This document shows positions 44,856 to 61,244 of a stretch of 64,000 nucleotides of DNA, piece after piece; the first letter of the stretch is position 1, and each line of letters starts with the position of its first letter. Location of the stretch: contig JAXHLW010000013.1 of assembly GCA_034521815.1 (NCBI GenBank), positions 256,001 through 320,000 on the forward strand, given 5' to 3'. The position numbers and the translations under genes were made by a program. The notes under the pieces were generated by a model. It ran no database searches, was not told where the DNA came from, and was given only the letters and a program-made list of their open reading frames with translations. The stretch comes from Trueperaceae bacterium (GTDB lineage Bacteria > Deinococcota > Deinococci > Deinococcales > Trueperaceae).

Positions 44856-46052
44856 TCAGTCGTCGCTTGACGGCACGCCGGGCTTCTGGCGGCGCGTCCA
44901 GGTGGCGGTGGCGGGGATCTTGGCGCGGTCGGCGCGGTGGGCGTACTTGCGGGCGACGCTGGTGACCTCTTCGAGCAGGCCGGCTTCGAGGGTGGTGGGC
45001 TCCAGGCCGAGGTCGAGGAACAGGTCGTTCTTGACGTGGAGGTCGTTCTCGCTGTCTTCGTTGCGGGGGTTGTCGACGTGGGCGACGTCGGCGCCGGCGA
45101 TGTCGGCGACGATCTTGGCGAGGTCGCGGACGCGGTGGGTTTCGGTCATCTGGTTGAGGATCTTGACGCGTTCGCCGCGCTCGGGTGGGTTTTCGAGGGC
45201 GAGCTGGATGCAGCGGACGGTGTCTTGGATGTGGATGAAGGCGCGGGTCTGTCCGCCGGTGCCGTGGACGGTGAGGGGGTAGCCGACGGCGGCTTGCATG
45301 AGGAAGCGGTTGAGGACGGTGCCGTAGTCGCCGTCGTAGTCGAAGCGGTTGACGAGGCGTTCGTCCTGGTCGGTCTCGCTCGTGTGGGTGCCCCAGACGA
45401 TGCCTTGGTGGAGGTCGGTGATGCGGAGGTGGTCGTTCTTGGCGTAGTACGCGAAGAACAGCTGGTCTTGGGTCTTGGTCATGTGGTAGATCGACCCGGG
45501 GTTGGCGGGGTAGAGGATCTCTTGGCGGACGGTGGTGCCGTCGTCGGTGGTGACGTCGACGGGGAGGTAGCCTTCGGGGATCTTCATGCCGGCGGTGCCG
45601 TAGCCGTAGACGCCCATGGTGCCGAGGTGGGCGAGGTGGACGTCGAGGCCGGATTCGACGATCGCGGCGAGCACGTTGTGGGTGGCGTTCAAGTTGTTGT
45701 CGACGGTGTAGCGCTTGTGGGCGCTGCTTTTCATGCTGTAGGGCGCGGCGCGTTGTTCGGCGAAGTGGACGATGGCGTCGGGCTTCTCGTCTTGGATGAG
45801 GGTGAGCAGGCGGTGGTAGTTCTTGGCGACGTCGAGGCGTTCGTAGCGGATGTCGCGTCCGGAGACTTCTTTCCACGCCTTCTGGCGGGTGCCCATGTGT
45901 TGGATGGGGGTGAGGCTGCCGGCTTCGAGCTCGTTGTCGATGTTGCGGCGGCTCAGGTTGTCGACGATGGTGACGTCGTGGCCGAGGGCGCTGAGGTGCA
46001 GGCTGGTGGGCCAGCCGCAGAAACCGTCGCCGCCGAGGATGAAGACCTTCAT
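44856..46052 (-). CDS. sqdB: UDP-sulfoquinovose synthase
   Basis: GGDGFCGWPT, HFAEQRAAPYSM, HLGTMGVYG, PGSIYHMTK, DLHQGIVWG, RFDYDGDYGTVLNRF, GGQTRAFIHI.D; GGAGG RBS, ATG 46052. Confidence 0.93.
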   Translation of the reverse strand: MKVFILGGDGFCGWPTSLHLSALGHDVTIVDNLSRRNIDNELEAGSLTPIQHMGTRQKAWKEVSGRDIRYERLDVAKNYHRLLTLIQDEKPDAIVHFAEQRAAPYSMKSSAHKRYTVDNNLNATHNVLAAIVESGLDVHLAHLGTMGVYGYGTAGMKIPEGYLPVDVTTDDGTTVRQEILYPANPGSIYHMTKTQDQLFFAYYAKNDHLRITDLHQGIVWGTHTSETDQDERLVNRFDYDGDYGTVLNRFLMQAAVGYPLTVHGTGGQTRAFIHIQDTVRCIQLALENPPERGERVKILNQMTETHRVRDLAKIVADIAGADVAHVDNPRNEDSENDLHVKNDLFLDLGLEPTTLEAGLLEEVTSVARKYAHRADRAKIPATATWTRRQKPGVPSSDD

Positions 46053-46137
46053 TCGGACCTCCGAGGGAAGTGGAGATGCCGCGAGGACGCGCGCTGCGCC
46101 CGCGGAAACGACCGACTGTACCACCGCTCGACCCGGC

Positions 46138-47370
46138 TCAGGACTCGCCTTTGGGCCCAAGCCGGAACCGTCGCCGCCACGCTCGCAAGCGGCGCTGGAG
46201 CCACCGGCGCCGGTACGGATCGGCCCCCGCCCTCCACTCGCCGCTCTTCACGAACGAGCCGATCACGATCGACGCGATGAAGAACGGATGGAGCACCGCC
46301 CAGGCAGCCAGACCCGGACCCACCAGGTCGTCCCGGTCCAGCTGCCGCGCGCCGATCGCGACGCCGACCACCTCGATCCCGATCTCCGCCAGCCACAGCG
46401 CAGCCACCCACGGCGCCAGCTCCGGCACCGCCGGCGTGACGACGACGGCGGCCGAAAGCGCGACGGACTGGAACCCCAGCAAGGCGATCGAGGCGAGAAA
46501 CCCCGGGTGGTAGTGCATCGGATGGTGGTACCTCGACACCCAGCGCCGACGCTGCAGGTAGAACGCCCGCCAGCTGGACACCGGTTGCGTCAGCACCCGC
46601 GTCTCCGGGCGGCTCGCGAACACGATGCGGCTTCCGGGCAGCCGGCCGAGACGCTGCGTGAGCAGGTCCTCGTCGCCGCTCGGCGCACGACCGGTCGCGC
46701 CGAAGCCGCCGGCGGCCTCGAACGCGTCGCGACGGTACGCCTGGTTGTTGGCGCTCGACGCGAACTTCCAGCCGAACCTCGTGAGCGAGCGCGAGACCAA
46801 CATCAGCGACAGCCAGTCGATCGTCTCGAACCGATGCAGGAACCGATCCACCCCGCCCCGCCGGGTCGTCTCGACATAGCCGACGACCATCGTCACCCCC
46901 GGCGCGAAGTGCGCCACCATCCCCTCGAGCCAGCCGCTCGGGTAGCGACAGTCGGCGTCGCTGGTCACGATGATCTCGCCGCTCGAGGCGTCGATGCCGT
47001 GCCTCACGGCGTTCACTTTGGGGGCCAGCCGGCGGTCCGGCACCTCGACACGCACGCTTCGGATCCGGGGATCGCGAGCGGCCGCGGCCGCGATCACGTC
47101 GGGGGTGCCGTCGCTGGATCGATCGTCGACCACCACGAACTCGGCGTCACCGGGGTAGCTCTGCGCGGACAAGGACGCCAGGGTCGGCGCCAGATCGTGC
47201 TCCTCGTCGTGGGCGGGCACGATCACGCTCACCGAGGGTCGCCGGCTCACCAGGCGCTCCTCGCCGCGGCGGAACAGCCCGACGAACGCGAGGCCCATCA
47301 GTCCCACGTAGGGAAGGGCGAGAGCGTAAAGAACGACGACGAACGCAGCGAGCAAAGCGACGACCTCCAA
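46138..47370 (-). CDS. Membrane GT2 glycosyltransferase
   Basis: N-terminal TM, SVIVPAHDEE, VDDRSSDGT, TSDADC, GDED, QRRRW, C-terminal TMs; TTG start inferred. Confidence 0.85.
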   Translation of the reverse strand: MEVVALLAAFVVVLYALALPYVGLMGLAFVGLFRRGEERLVSRRPSVSVIVPAHDEEHDLAPTLASLSAQSYPGDAEFVVVDDRSSDGTPDVIAAAAARDPRIRSVRVEVPDRRLAPKVNAVRHGIDASSGEIIVTSDADCRYPSGWLEGMVAHFAPGVTMVVGYVETTRRGGVDRFLHRFETIDWLSLMLVSRSLTRFGWKFASSANNQAYRRDAFEAAGGFGATGRAPSGDEDLLTQRLGRLPGSRIVFASRPETRVLTQPVSSWRAFYLQRRRWVSRYHHPMHYHPGFLASIALLGFQSVALSAAVVVTPAVPELAPWVAALWLAEIGIEVVGVAIGARQLDRDDLVGPGLAAWAVLHPFFIASIVIGSFVKSGEWRAGADPYRRRWLQRRLRAWRRRFRLGPKGES

Positions 47371-56162: not shown

Positions 56163-56238
56163 GCCACCCTAGCTCAACTGGTAGAGCATCCGACTTGTAA
56201 TCGGAAGGTTGTCGGTTCGATTCCGATGGGTGGCTCCA
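56163..56238 (+). tRNA. tRNA-Thr(TGT)
   Basis: GCCACCC/GGGTGGC acceptor, anticodon loop CT-TGT-AA, GGTTCGATTCC, encoded CCA. Confidence 0.96.
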
Positions 56239-56277
56239 CGTTTGCGCCGCGCGCGTCCGATCGGCTTTGGGCCGCAT

Positions 56278-56363
56278 GGGTAGGTGCCCGAGTGGTTAAA
56301 GGGGACGGACTGTAAATCCGTTGGCTTATGCCTACGCTGGTTCGAATCCAGCCCTACCCACCA
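56278..56363 (+). tRNA. tRNA-Tyr(GTA)
   Basis: GGGTAGG/CCTACCC, CT-GTA-AA, long variable arm, GGTTCGAATCC, CCA. Confidence 0.96.
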
Positions 56364-56447
56364 CGCTGGAAGCCGGTCACGCCTCGAGCCGGTCCGCGGC
56401 CGTTCCGCGGGTTTTCGATCCGGGTCAGGGGCCCTCGCTCCGACCTC

Positions 56448-56523
<76 letters not shown>

Positions 56524-56571
56524 GGCGTCCGTGGCCCCATCGGCTCAGGACGCGATCCCGGGTCCAGGTAG

Positions 56572-56646
<75 letters not shown>

Positions 56647-56766
56647 AATCCCAGGCCCCGTAGAACGACGCGATCCGTCGGAGCACGTCCCGCGGATCGT
56701 GACTCGTCTGTCGCCGCGGCGGGCCCTACACCCTCCCGCACGGCGCGAAGGAAAGGACCAGACACC

Positions 56767-57984
56767 ATGGCGAAAGCTACGTTCAACCGTACGAAGCCGC
56801 ATGTGAATGTTGGGACGATTGGGCATGTGGATCATGGGAAGACGACGTTGACGGCGGCGATTACGTTTGCTGCTGCGGCGATGGATCCGTCGGCGACGAC
56901 GATGTCGTATGACCAGATCGATAAGGCGCCGGAGGAGAAGGCGCGTGGGATTACGATTAATACGTCGCATGTGGAGTATCAGACGGAGTCGCGTCATTAC
57001 AGTCATGTGGATTGTCCGGGGCATGCGGATTATGTGAAGAACATGATTACGGGTGCTGCGCAGATGGATGGTGCGGTGTTGGTGGTGTCGGCGGCGGATG
57101 GTCCGATGCCGCAGACGCGTGAGCACATTTTGTTGGCTCGGCAGGTGGGGGTTCCTTACATTTCCGTGTTTTTGAACAAGGTGGACATGGTGGATGATGA
57201 GGAGCTTTTGGAGCTTGTGGAGATGGAGGTTCGTGAGCTTTTGTCGTCTTACGAGTTTCCTGGGGATGATGTGCCTGTGGTGTCTGGGTCTGCGTTGAAG
57301 GCGTTGGAGGCGTTGTCGGCGAATCCGAATGTGCAGCGTGGTGAGGATGCGTGGGTGGATAAGGTTTGGGAGCTTTTGGATGCGGTGGATGCGTATATTC
57401 CGACGCCTGAGCGGGATGTGGATAAGCCGTTTTTGATGCCTGTCGAGGATGTGTTCACGATTACGGGTCGTGGGACGGTGGCGACGGGTCGTGTTGAGCG
57501 GGGTGTTGTGAAGACGGGGGATGAGGTGGAGGTTGTTGGTCTTTCGAATACGCGGAAGACGGTTGTGACGGGTGTGGAGATGCATCGGAAGACGTTGGAT
57601 AGTGGGATGGCTGGGGATAATGTCGGGGTTTTGCTTCGTGGTGTGGCGCGGGATGATATCGAGCGTGGGCAGGTGCTTGCGAAGCCGGGTTCGATTACGC
57701 CGCATACGAGGTTTTCTGGGAGTGTGTACATTTTGAGGAAGGAGGAGGGGGGGCGTCATTCGGCGTTTTTTGCGGGGTATCGTCCTCAGTTTTACTTTCG
57801 GACGACGGATGTGACGGGGGTTTGTACGTTGCCGTCGGATGTGGAGATGGTGATGCCGGGGGATAATGTGGAGTTGTCGGTGGAGTTGATCAAGCCGATT
57901 GCGATGGAGGAGGGTCTTCGCTTCGCGATTCGTGAGGGTGGTCGTACGGTGGGTGCGGGCGTCGTGACGGGAATCCAGGAGTAG
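56767..57984 (+). CDS. tuf: Elongation factor Tu
   Basis: [52 protein letters not shown]. Confidence 0.99.
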
Positions 57985-58359
57985 GCGCTTCACAGGTCCG
58001 CGGGCTCACGCCGCCGGCGGCCTGCGAACGGACGGTTTCCGGACGTGACACGTCCGGTCCGTCCGTCTGCTATCCTGCTCAGGTTGCACCGCCGCGATGC
58101 GGACCGGCGCACTGCCGCGGAGCCTGCGCGGGGCTGTTCGATCACAGGACCGTTCCGCTCGAAGACCCGGCCGCTCGAAGGCCGTCCGCTCCAAACCACC
58201 GCGCTCGCGGGCGCGATCGCACCCCTGACGGCGTCTCGTCCGAACGACCCTCGTGGAATCGCACGACCGAACGAGCACGACCGCACGAACCACGACGAGC
58301 CACGGAACGTACGATGCAAGGCGCTACGGAGGAAGGCACCACGGAAACGGGAGACCATC

Positions 58360-58707: not shown

Positions 58708-58762
58708 CCGTTTCTTCGTCGACCCCACCGTGGGGCGTTCGGCCCCAGGAGGACCGAGGCGC

Positions 58763-59320
58763 ATGAGCATCGAATGGTACGCCGTCCACACGTACGTGGG
58801 ACACGAGGACAAGGTCAAGGAGAACATCACGGGACGGGCGCGCACGCTCGGGATCTCGGATATGATCTACCAGGTCGTCGTTCCCAGCGAGGAGACGGTG
58901 GAGCACGCCCCGGGCGGCAAGCGCGAGGTCGTCAAGCGCAAGCTGTTTCCCGGGTACATCTTCGTGCAGATGGACCTCGGCGACAATCCCGACGAGCCCA
59001 ACGAAGCGTGGGAGGTCGTGCGCTACACGCCGGGCGTCACCGGCTTCGTCGGCACGTCCACGCACGCGGTGCCCCTCTCGCCCGACGAGGAGCTGCGCAT
59101 GCTGGGCACGCTGGGCATCACCGGCTCGAAGGAGGCCCCGAAGATCAAGGTCACCTTCCATGTCGGCGACATGGTGCAGGTCACCTCGGGCCCGTTCGCC
59201 GACTTCACCGGCGTCGTCTCGGAAGTCAACCCCGATCGCGGCACCCTCAAGGTGCTCGTCTCGATCTTCGGGCGGGAGACCCCCGTCGAACTCGACTTCG
59301 CGCAGGTCGTCAAGAGCTGA
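58763..59320 (+). CDS. nusG: Transcription termination/antitermination factor NusG
   Basis: [44 protein letters not shown]. Confidence 0.97.
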
Positions 59321-59388
59321 CGACGCTGACGCGTCGCGCGCACGAACCCCGGCGCTGGCCAGCGCACGGGGGAGCGTAAGGAGGAATC

Positions 59389-59821
59389 ATGGCCAAGAAA
59401 GTCGTAGGGATCGTCAAGCTGCAGCTGCCGGCCGGGGGCGCCACACCGGCTCCGCCCGTGGGGCCGGCGCTGGGCCAGTACGGTGCCAACATCATGCAGT
59501 TCGTCAAGGAGTACAACGCCGCGACCGCCAGCCAGGCGGGCGCCGTCGTGCCGGTCGAGATCACCATCTTCGCCGACCGCTCCTTCACCTTCGTCATGCG
59601 CACGCCGCCCGCGAGCTACCTGATCAAGCAGGCCGCTGGCGTGCAGAAGGGCTCGGGCGTGCCGGACGCCGAGAAGGTCGGCTCGATCAGCTGGGACCAG
59701 TGCCTGGAGATCGGCCGGACGAAGATGGAAGACCTGAACGCCGGCGACGAGGTCGCCGCCGCGCGCATCATCGCCGGCAGCGCCCGCTCGATGGGCGTGA
59801 CCGTGGAAGGGGCGCCCGATC

Positions 59822-59829
<8 letters not shown>
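59389..59829 (+). CDS. rplK: 50S ribosomal protein uL11
   Basis: [32 protein letters not shown]. Confidence 0.98.
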
Positions 59830-60505
<676 letters not shown>

Positions 60506-60569
60506 TTCTGCATCCCGGTGCGTAGCGGGGGCTAGCACGCCCTCCTCGGGCGTCGCCCGAACCACCTGA

Positions 60570-60625
60570 TGGCGTTGGAGACAGCAGGGGCCGGCCAGGC
60601 TTAAAGATCCTGCCGAGGCGTCCGG
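60570..60625 (+). ncRNA. L10 ribosomal protein leader (cis-regulatory)
   Basis: GAGACAGCAGG...TTAA...CCTGCCGAGG pattern upstream of rplJ. Confidence 0.75.
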
Positions 60626-60713
60626 GAGCGGCGAGAAGCCGCAGCCCGCGCTACGCTTCGCGGCACGTTCGCACCGCCGGTGCGGACGACACGAGAACGA
60701 ACGGGAGCATTCC

Positions 60714-61244
60714 ATGGCGAATCCAAAGAACGAAGCGACGGTCGCCGCGCTCCGCGAGTCACTCGCGGACGTGAAGACCTTTTTCGTCGTGGACTATCAG
60801 GGTCTCTCCGCGGGGGACCTCGGCAGGTTGCGCGCTTCGGTGCGCACCGCCGGTGGTCGCTTGCTCGTCGCCAAGAACACGTTGATCAACGTGGTCCTCA
60901 GGGAACAGGGGATCGACGGGTTCGACGAGACGTTGCAAGGTCCCAGCGCTCTGGTGCTGATCGGGGACGACCCGGTCGCGCCGGCGAAGGCGCTGACGGA
61001 CTTCGCGAAAGACCATCCGAAGGAGCTGCCCGCCGCCAAGGGCGGTCTGCTCCAAGGCGGTCAGGTCGGGCCCGAAGCGCTCGCCCGGATCGCCAAGCTG
61101 CCTACCCGCGACGAACTCCTCAGCCAGGTCATCGGTGTGCTTCAAGCCCCGATGCAGCAGCTGGTCGGCGTTCTCGAGGGACCGCAGCGGGACCTGGTGT
61201 CCGTGATGAACAACTACGCAGAGAAGATGAAGGAAGGGAACTGA
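60714..61244 (+). CDS. rplJ: 50S ribosomal protein uL10
   Basis: VDYQGL, LR...[19 protein letters not shown]. Confidence 0.96.

Follow-up and report, generated by a model that had tools for sequence, protein, structure and literature searches.

The gene for elongation factor Tu (EF-Tu), tuf, is among the most highly expressed genes of bacteria and a textbook example of optimal codon use. In this work, we describe a tuf gene in which nearly all codons end in G or T, found in a 64,000-nucleotide stretch of a Trueperaceae genome (assembly GCA_034521815.1, contig JAXHLW010000013.1, positions 256,001 to 320,000 of the forward strand; this whole stretch is called the window below), and relate it to a second tuf copy, to a pair of recA genes and to the mismatch-repair genes of the family. 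One of the closest described systems is the concerted evolution of tufA and tufB in Salmonella and Escherichia coli, where one copy lies after fusA and the other after tRNA genes, and near-identity is limited to the coding sequence (CDS); the excerpt of that account used here describes no compositional drive (PMC5485169). The locus in the window shares this arrangement and the CDS-only identity, and differs in its extreme compositional tract and in the involvement of a second gene, recA. To concerted evolution as known from tufA/tufB, this case adds a compositional drive, and the whole resembles biased gene conversion.

GC-biased gene conversion is likewise a non-adaptive drive that acts only at heteroduplex sites, shifts composition against codon preference and is attributed to biased mismatch handling. 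However, it favours G and C on both strands, whereas here G and T are favoured on one strand, between paralogues of one genome. The fraction of G and C at third codon positions (GC3) falls from about 0.90 in the genome to 0.65 in tuf, T at these positions (T3; C3, G3 and A3 are used likewise) reaches 0.34 and C is the base that is lost, which is not the product of GC-biased conversion. The strand skews associated with replication and transcription show the same excess of G over C and of T over A on the sense strand, but they are small and genome- or transcript-wide, while the present skew does not extend beyond a gene or tract and leaves neighbouring genes such as fusA unaffected. Fungal repeat-induced point mutation (RIP) is also triggered by duplication and also removes C. 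Under RIP, both strands mutate and the copies drift apart and lose function, whereas here a single strand is affected and the copies are 98–100% identical and open. A further point of comparison is NucS/EndoMS mismatch repair, which the parts of the literature drawn on here place in Actinobacteria and Archaea, as a repair of replication errors and a barrier to homeologous recombination (PMC8228993, PMC11551767). The present lineage resembles these systems in carrying a two-domain NucS with MutS1 and MutL not found, and the published specificity of the enzyme lies on the keto/amino axis of the skew. A literature survey, conducted mostly at the level of titles and abstract openings, returned no description of a keto-skewed tuf/recA pattern and no report of NucS shaping the composition of paralogues.

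The tuf gene of the window occupies positions 56767–57984 on the forward strand (405 codons plus stop). Its product contains the EF-Tu domains GTP_EFTU, D2 and D3 (Pfam E-values 2.7e-66, 9.7e-21 and 1.4e-38), and its best PDB matches are EF-Tu chains (742 bits, residues 1–404), which identify it as a Thermus-like EF-Tu. The 406 third positions comprise 241 G, 139 T, 24 C and 2 A, with about 94% of codons ending in G or T. Codons 8–48 form a run of 41 consecutive G/T endings, which has a chance probability of about 3.6e-14 at the genome-wide frequency of G or T (0.47), and leucine is encoded by TTG (18) and CTT (8) and never by CTG or CTC, the codons that account for 0.57 and 0.31 of leucine in the genome. 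Both features had been noted in a preliminary description of the sequence and are borne out. In 400-bp intervals, the GC skew rises from about zero outside the gene to 0.45–0.50 inside and drops back at both ends, and GC falls from about 0.67 to 0.55; over the whole gene, the skew is 0.43, and at third positions, where it is defined as skew3 = (G3−C3)/(G3+C3), it is 0.82. The adjoining 200 nt on either side each have a skew of −0.04, in agreement with the earlier statement that the pattern stops at the edges of the reading frame; the accompanying statement that it runs to the last codons needs qualification, as the ends are less extreme (two C and one A in the first 7 codons, three C and one A in the last 10). 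Compared with 1683 called genes (skew3 mean −0.08, SD (standard deviation) 0.11; T3 mean 0.058, SD 0.026), a set from a crude codon-model caller that covers about 72% of the assembly and missed tuf itself, tuf lies at +8.0 SD for skew3, +11 SD for T3 and −7.9 SD for C3, so that the G/T island on the coding strand stands confirmed at 8–11 SD. An assembly or sequencing artefact was rejected, since more than 20 relatives, each assembled independently, show the same pattern.

The studied assembly (G000; 2.63 Mb, 13 contigs, 71% GC, 83.5% complete) was scanned without recourse to annotation, and six 600-bp islands with an absolute GC skew above 0.25 were found. Four of the six are two tuf and two recA genes, and the recA copies rank 1 and 2 among the called genes, an enrichment of multi-copy genes among compositional outliers that had been anticipated, as had the duplication of tuf. 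The second tuf copy lies outside the window at C13:518418–519635 (L033 2419–3636; subtracting 256000 from a coordinate on contig C13 gives the window coordinate), between fusA and rpsJ. The two copies are 98.7% identical from ATG to stop, exactly the CDS, and unrelated beyond. The fusA gene directly upstream of copy 2 has a C3 of 0.53, and fusA, rpsJ and the S10/spc genes are all ordinary (C3 0.48–0.58). The differences between the copies have a mixed spectrum, and many variants are shared with other species. In copy 2, the frame is broken between two indels, a +1 and a −1, which are separated by about 200 nt and lie within or next to runs of G. They are probably assembly errors: in four public metagenome runs, contigs that cover these sites, short and not assignable to one tuf copy, lack both indels in all cases (X1, X2) or in part (X3, X8). 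The sequence is present in sediment, lake and hypersaline-lake metagenomes.

The recA copies lie at C1:332470–333582 and C13:1275596–1276714, the second upstream of the gene for RNase Y, and both encode the RecA and RecA_C domains (E-values 5.8e-137 and 1.3e-137). They share a core of 985 bp at 98.7% identity, and their N- and C-terminal tails differ and are acidic or Ala/Ser-rich. The same two-recA architecture is present in at least nine genomes of the family, MutS-bearing members included, and the core is 97.8–100% identical between copies in nine genomes. The skew is confined to what the copies share. The C3 of the tails exceeds that of the core in the studied assembly (0.44 vs 0.21, Fisher 3e-5), in G005 (0.44 vs 0.24, Fisher 6e-4) and in the pooled genomes G056, G109, G112 and G157 (0.40, 99/248, vs 0.12, 320/2615), with the N-terminal starts of the tails being guessed. 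The flanks of all four tuf and recA genes are unskewed, with values of −0.04 to −0.11 around the tuf copies.

The bias acts at the level of nucleotides rather than codon endings, with keto bases (G, T) raised and amino bases (C, A) lowered on the coding strand. Two-fold pyrimidine-ending codons of tuf have 75 T and 18 C, two-fold purine-ending codons 55 G and 1 A (1/56), and four-fold sites 149 G, 64 T, 6 C and 1 A; threonine is ACG in 32 of 32 cases, with no ACT, and alanine is GCG 28 times and GCT 6 times. Arginine has kept CGN (AGG only 2/24), and serine has kept TCN with AGY not raised, and thus there is no avoidance of C in general. With a standard tRNA set that has no NNT-specific tRNA except Arg-ACG, the NNT codons of tuf must be read by wobble; the ribosomal-protein block uses NNC. 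The residual C peaks in the weak WWY codons (TAC 50%, AAC 30%), the very codons in which the strongest translational selection for C is expected. NNT usage does, therefore, run against the NNC preference of highly expressed genes, as first proposed, and translational adaptation was rejected in view of the ordinary tRNA set.

Two other proposals of the preliminary description did not hold. The first was the removal of C from one physical strand. Polarity is instead set by the coding strand: identical tuf copies lie on opposite strands in complete relatives, and in three genomes (G056, G109, G157) the recA copies are mutually inverted on one contig and both are G/T-rich on their coding strands. 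It had also suggested a deamination process comparable to RIP, with simple changes of C to T, which does not agree with threonine being ACG throughout, with G prevailing over T at four-fold sites, with the depletion of A or with copies that are intact and near-identical. A context-specific deaminase was rejected as well, only weak context effects having been seen. Nor does the pattern reflect a transcription-associated mutational asymmetry, since fusA, the untranslated regions (UTRs), the recA tails, the ribosomal-protein genes and nusG are all normal.

In relatives of the same genus, tuf has a C3 of 0.01–0.06, and several other genera share the pattern. The tuf copies of a genome differ at 0–4 synonymous sites in nine relatives, skewed and unskewed, vs 30–255 between species, and the tuf and recA pairs thus both show the concerted evolution expected from gene conversion. 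Between species of the genus, 24–25% of four-fold tuf sites differ; of these 45–47 differences, 39–41 exchange G and T, and C remains at 1–6%. The pattern persists through this turnover, and the exclusion of C while G and T turn over indicates a force at work today rather than the remains of a past one. In the EF-Tu protein tree, the family and the genus are recovered (Shimodaira–Hasegawa-like approximate likelihood ratio test, SH-aLRT, 97 and 92), and as the tree follows taxonomy, the protein is vertically inherited and there is no sign of horizontal or foreign replacement, in line with the earlier judgement that a recent horizontal transfer is unlikely. Among 80 tuf genes from other phyla, taken from the matches listed, the highest skew3 is 0.50; the 24 of them with high-GC flanks reach at most 0.33, with a lowest C3 of 0.31. 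Five of the six actinobacterial tuf genes in this background are ordinary, in a comparison limited to composition.

Duplication is linked to the skew, as the preliminary description had proposed in attributing it to a process acting on duplicated sequence. Single-copy recA is unskewed in tuf-skewed genomes (skew3 −0.13 to +0.10 in G012, G021, G024 and G025), and skew in recA occurs only in genomes that have two copies of it and a skewed tuf. Duplication with conversion is not sufficient, however: in the MutS-bearing G013, the tuf and recA pairs are both homogenized and neither is skewed. Such homogenized yet unskewed pairs imply that some factor of the lineage must act. Ribosomal RNA, a candidate third homogenized family, offers no further case, 16S being single-copy in the 5/5 NucS-only genomes searched (genomes with NucS found and MutS1 and MutL not found).

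Because the bias lies on the keto/amino axis, NucS/EndoMS was suspected, and repair genes were searched in the family and then in 151 sampled genomes of the order; search controls matched in 11/14 reference genomes. The genus (11/11 genomes) and the other skewed genera of the family had a match to NucS_C and none to MutS_I or MutL_C, and unskewed family members have the reverse set. The skew thus co-varies with the repair gene set, extreme skew being observed only in relatives with NucS/EndoMS found and MutS1/MutL not found. The NucS of the studied assembly has both domains, NucS_N and NucS_C (86.4 and 48.2 bits), and gene content in this 83.5% complete genome predicts that mismatch repair would rely on NucS alone. 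The composition of tuf in additional NucS-only genomes was predicted before it was computed: a C3 of at most 0.11 with a T3 of at least 0.25 was found in 8/9 of them and in 0/11 additional MutS-bearing family members. Four NucS-only genomes (G056, G109, G112 and G157) carry duplicated recA with a core of 970–990 bp, 97.8–99.7% identity, skew3 of +0.63 to +0.75 and 23–24 TTG codons. The MutS-bearing G034 has the same recA architecture (99.2% identity) and the same flank GC (0.70–0.72), yet its skew3 is −0.44 and its C3 0.64. Genus g10, which has both repair systems, shows no skew. Genus g11 shows none either, and there NucS_C and MutS_I were each found in 0/9 genomes of the order-wide search and MutL_C in 0/2; judging from gene content, this lineage (e.g. 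G020, G028 and G040, 98–100% complete) may be without any known mismatch repair.

Published work on NucS, as far as the excerpts used here go, gives G-T, G-G and T-T as its preferred substrates, with weak or no activity on A-C, and reports an about ten-fold increase in homeologous recombination between sequences of 90% identity when NucS is lost (PMC8228993). In Mycobacterium smegmatis, oligonucleotide-borne G-G, G-T and T-T are incorporated more than 500-fold less than all other mismatches in a NucS-dependent manner (PMC11551767), and the NucS repair patch is short (PMC11551767; PMC11551744). On this basis, we tentatively propose, with a confidence just short of even, that heteroduplexes filtered by NucS make the conversion between tuf and between recA paralogues keto-biased. 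Each gene is present as two old paralogues that are kept near-identical by gene conversion over a fixed tract, the whole CDS for tuf and the core of about 985 bp for recA. Inside the tract, a persistent strand-specific bias would drive selectively free sites of the coding strand from amino (C, A) to keto (G, T); G and T would exchange freely, and translational selection would only set which of the two is used. The source of the bias would be the mismatch surveillance of the lineage, NucS/EndoMS, with neither MutS1 nor MutL detectable. The NucS of other organisms is active only on G-T, G-G and T-T and is blind to A-C, C-C, A-A, C-T and A-G. If, as we assume, the resident coding strand usually pairs in the heteroduplex with an incoming strand of template sense, G or T on the donor's coding strand would arrive as C or A and go unseen, and conversion would proceed. 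A C or A on the donor's coding strand would arrive as G or T and be removed when facing a resident G or T. Differences between G and T or between C and A would give G-A, T-C, C-T or A-G mismatches, which would be ignored, and the net outcome would be a one-way conversion towards keto bases on the coding strand. A candidate reason for the strand preference is transcription, which exposes the non-template strand; replication cannot supply the asymmetry, given that three genomes carry their two recA copies in opposite orientations on a single contig. Such a mechanism would reproduce the one-way change from amino to keto, the free turnover of G and T, the confinement to the tract and the dependence on NucS alone. 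Single-step amino-acid changes in the genus, 13 from amino to keto vs 4 from keto to amino (p=0.049), with isoleucine to valine six times, fit it too. Both the causal role of NucS and the preferential transfer of one strand sense are steps that we infer.

A number of observations weigh against this proposal. The sign of the bias would require the strand asymmetry just assumed, and the mismatch specificity of NucS and its action on heteroduplexes are carried over by analogy from organisms of other phyla. The NucS-only genome G032 is an exception, with a tuf C3 of 0.33 and T3 of 0.23. Genus g12 is moderately skewed (C3 0.16–0.23, T3 0.14–0.18, TTG 15–20) despite MutS_I in 23/23 genomes and NucS in 0/23, and the NucS protein of the studied assembly, used as a query, has no match in it; g14 has both repair systems and a skew3 of 0.51. 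The MutS-bearing G131 is C-poor in another way (C3 0.13, T3 0.21, A3 0.15), and tuf of genus g23 (G103, G106 and G148; L174, L176 and L177) has purine-rich third positions (A3 0.46–0.52, C3 0.08–0.11), a pattern unlike that of keto-skewed and ordinary relatives alike. The family backbone is not resolved in the EF-Tu tree or the 16S tree, and the relatives do not count as independent cases: the number of origins of the NucS-only state may be as low as one to a few, in which case any co-inherited trait would correlate equally, and the genus-level Fisher p=1e-4, based on a threshold chosen after seeing the data, overstates the case. The recA tails are unalignable between species, so that their ordinary composition may partly reflect youth. 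Along the recA core, no parabolic C3 profile was seen, unlike the prediction of a simple model of conversion frequency, and C3 rises towards the 3′ end in several genomes. Moreover, other repeats of the studied assembly (86–98% identity) are without skew; many of them look like assembly or strain duplicates.

Among the alternatives, gene-specific selection on the transcript or its template is unlikely, though the most probable of them. Duplication would then be a second, parallel mark of a gene in high demand, and selection could favour an mRNA whose low C content weakens its folding, lets it escape Rho or an RNase or suits it to translation under stress, or a G/T-poor template with fewer oxidative or UV lesions. 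EF-Tu and RecA are needed in bulk or after damage, and the pattern has long been maintained against translational preference. The mean minimum free energy per 120 nt is −38.0 for the tuf mRNA vs −45.1 +/− 1.1 for synonymous recodings, and −41.1 vs −47.3 for recA; this weaker folding also speaks against the conversion-based proposal and keeps a selective reading alive, but it follows automatically from composition. Selection of this kind would have to leave the UTRs C-rich, fusA beside the second tuf copy normal, the tails of recA itself normal in six genomes, and the ribosomal-protein genes and nusG unaffected; it would have to leave arginine at CGN rather than AGG and serine at TCN rather than AGY, a sign that C as such is not avoided, and single-copy recA unskewed in tuf-skewed lineages. 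It also meets MutS-bearing genomes of the same family and GC, in which the same paralogues are unskewed or C3-rich. Somewhat less probable still, and in our view doubtful, is a conversion-linked bias caused by a co-inherited factor other than NucS, such as a recombination pathway, a glycosylase or a mode of heteroduplex resolution. Tract confinement and the dependence on duplication apply to it equally, very few independent events may underlie the association with NucS, and the moderate skew of the MutS-bearing g12 and g14 implies that NucS is not strictly required. Yet no other candidate has been identified, the keto/amino axis and the free exchange of G and T match the published NucS specificity unusually well, and lineages with neither repair system show nothing.

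Deamination of C (and A) on a strand left single-stranded each time the copies recombine is improbable on balance. A rise of G and T with a fall of C and A is the classical signature of single-strand deamination; the shifts from CTG to TTG, NNC to NNT and NNA to NNG fit, and the effect is confined to the recombining tract. Four-fold sites, however, have moved mainly to G and not to T, as the threonine and alanine codons illustrate (ACG 32, ACT 0; GCG 28 vs GCT 6), and no single-step C>T amino-acid change is present among 21. Two-ended breaks would expose both strands, and MutS-bearing relatives with the same conversion show nothing. Ectopic conversion is moreover reported to be rare, about once per 1e5–1e6 generations in Salmonella in the excerpt used here (PMC5485169), which would add little exposure. 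Last, both genes could carry foreign alleles from a donor with G/T-ending codons, introduced by homologous recombination within the conserved coding parts, a scenario we consider very improbable. The boundaries do coincide with conserved coding parts, variants such as TCT/AGT, CTT/TTG and AAT/GCG are shared between copies and across species, and G018 is mosaic along the gene. Against it stand the recovery of the family and the genus in the EF-Tu tree, the lack of any such donor among the listed genes of other phyla (with their maxima of 0.50 overall and 0.33 with high-GC flanks) and the exclusion of C through the four-fold turnover, which shows that the pattern is maintained in place.

The surroundings of tuf in the window are compositionally ordinary. 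Four tRNA genes, for tRNA-Thr(TGT), tRNA-Tyr(GTA), tRNA-Gly(CCC) and tRNA-Thr(GGT), lie upstream on the forward strand (56163..56646) and form the canonical tufB-type context; neither they nor the spacer of about 120 nt before tuf is skewed. The preliminary description had placed tuf in a tRNA-tuf-rpmG-secE order, of which the tRNA part is supported and the rpmG/secE part is unconfirmed, the one short frame tried having no Pfam match. Downstream, nusG, rplK, rplA and rplJ (58730..61244, forward strand), identified from their N-terminal sequences, serve as highly expressed internal controls and, as previously observed for the flanking genes, prefer C-ending codons (C3 0.41–0.53, T3 0.03–0.09). 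An antisense open frame of 482 codons spans the whole of tuf (56545–57993, reverse strand); it is expected by chance, since stop codons would need a T at positions where the antisense strand has almost none, and it is not regarded as a gene.

The two remaining skew islands of the assembly are of a different nature. One is a single-copy gene for an sqdB-like epimerase (window 44856..46160, reverse strand), which had been put forward as an independent signal of the same polarity. This is true on the forward strand only; on its own coding strand, the gene has a C3 of 0.74 and a skew3 of −0.62, the lowest of the genome (next gene −0.47), and its orthologues in four relatives are ordinary (−0.09 to −0.22). 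Being single-copy, of opposite coding-strand polarity and ordinary in relatives, it was rejected as part of the phenomenon. The other is a single-copy fragment of an IS4-type transposase with the N-terminal domain only (C13:220750–221352, reverse strand; G3 0.61), which may be foreign DNA. A process acting on all repeats was likewise rejected, as 8-kb tandem repeats, duplicate small contigs and paralogues at 86–95% identity have a skew of about zero. The repeats of the assembly (C13:1667675–1683560, C12:16766–31987, C13:961753–986044 and the small contigs C6, C7 and C10) comprise tandem duplications of 8 kb and 7.6 kb at 97% identity, other internal repeats at 96–98% and some small contigs that duplicate parts of large ones at 94–99% identity; these look like strain variation or assembly artefacts. 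The genome background skew is only about +/−0.02, and the inverted recA copies are both G/T-rich on their coding strands, unlike a replication-associated GC skew, which is genome-wide and takes its sign from the leading or lagging strand. A peak of the cumulative skew near 600 kb on C13 would place the second recA copy on the lagging strand, but the signal is weak, and the ribosomal-protein gene beside it points the opposite way.

The codons of tuf in this lineage are read largely by wobble, which means that a non-adaptive force has long overridden translational selection in this gene. It is possible, although we would put it a little below the NucS proposal itself, that a sole endonuclease for keto-keto mismatches turns conversion between transcribed paralogues into a one-way ratchet that shifts the coding strand to G and T in spite of translational selection, a new and strand-specific ‘keto-biased gene conversion’. 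If this is true, the specificity of a repair enzyme would be readable from genome composition, and biased gene conversion would gain a second, strand-specific axis. The gene-sized islands of NNK codons seen here would have counterparts in homogenized paralogues of Actinobacteria and of NucS-only Archaea, where similar ones are predicted, and tuf and recA, which are common markers in phylogeny and codon-adaptation studies, would be misleading in these lineages. The family constitutes a natural experiment, with the same paralogues and the same GC combined with differing mismatch-repair genes, in which the effect of mismatch surveillance on concerted evolution is testable.

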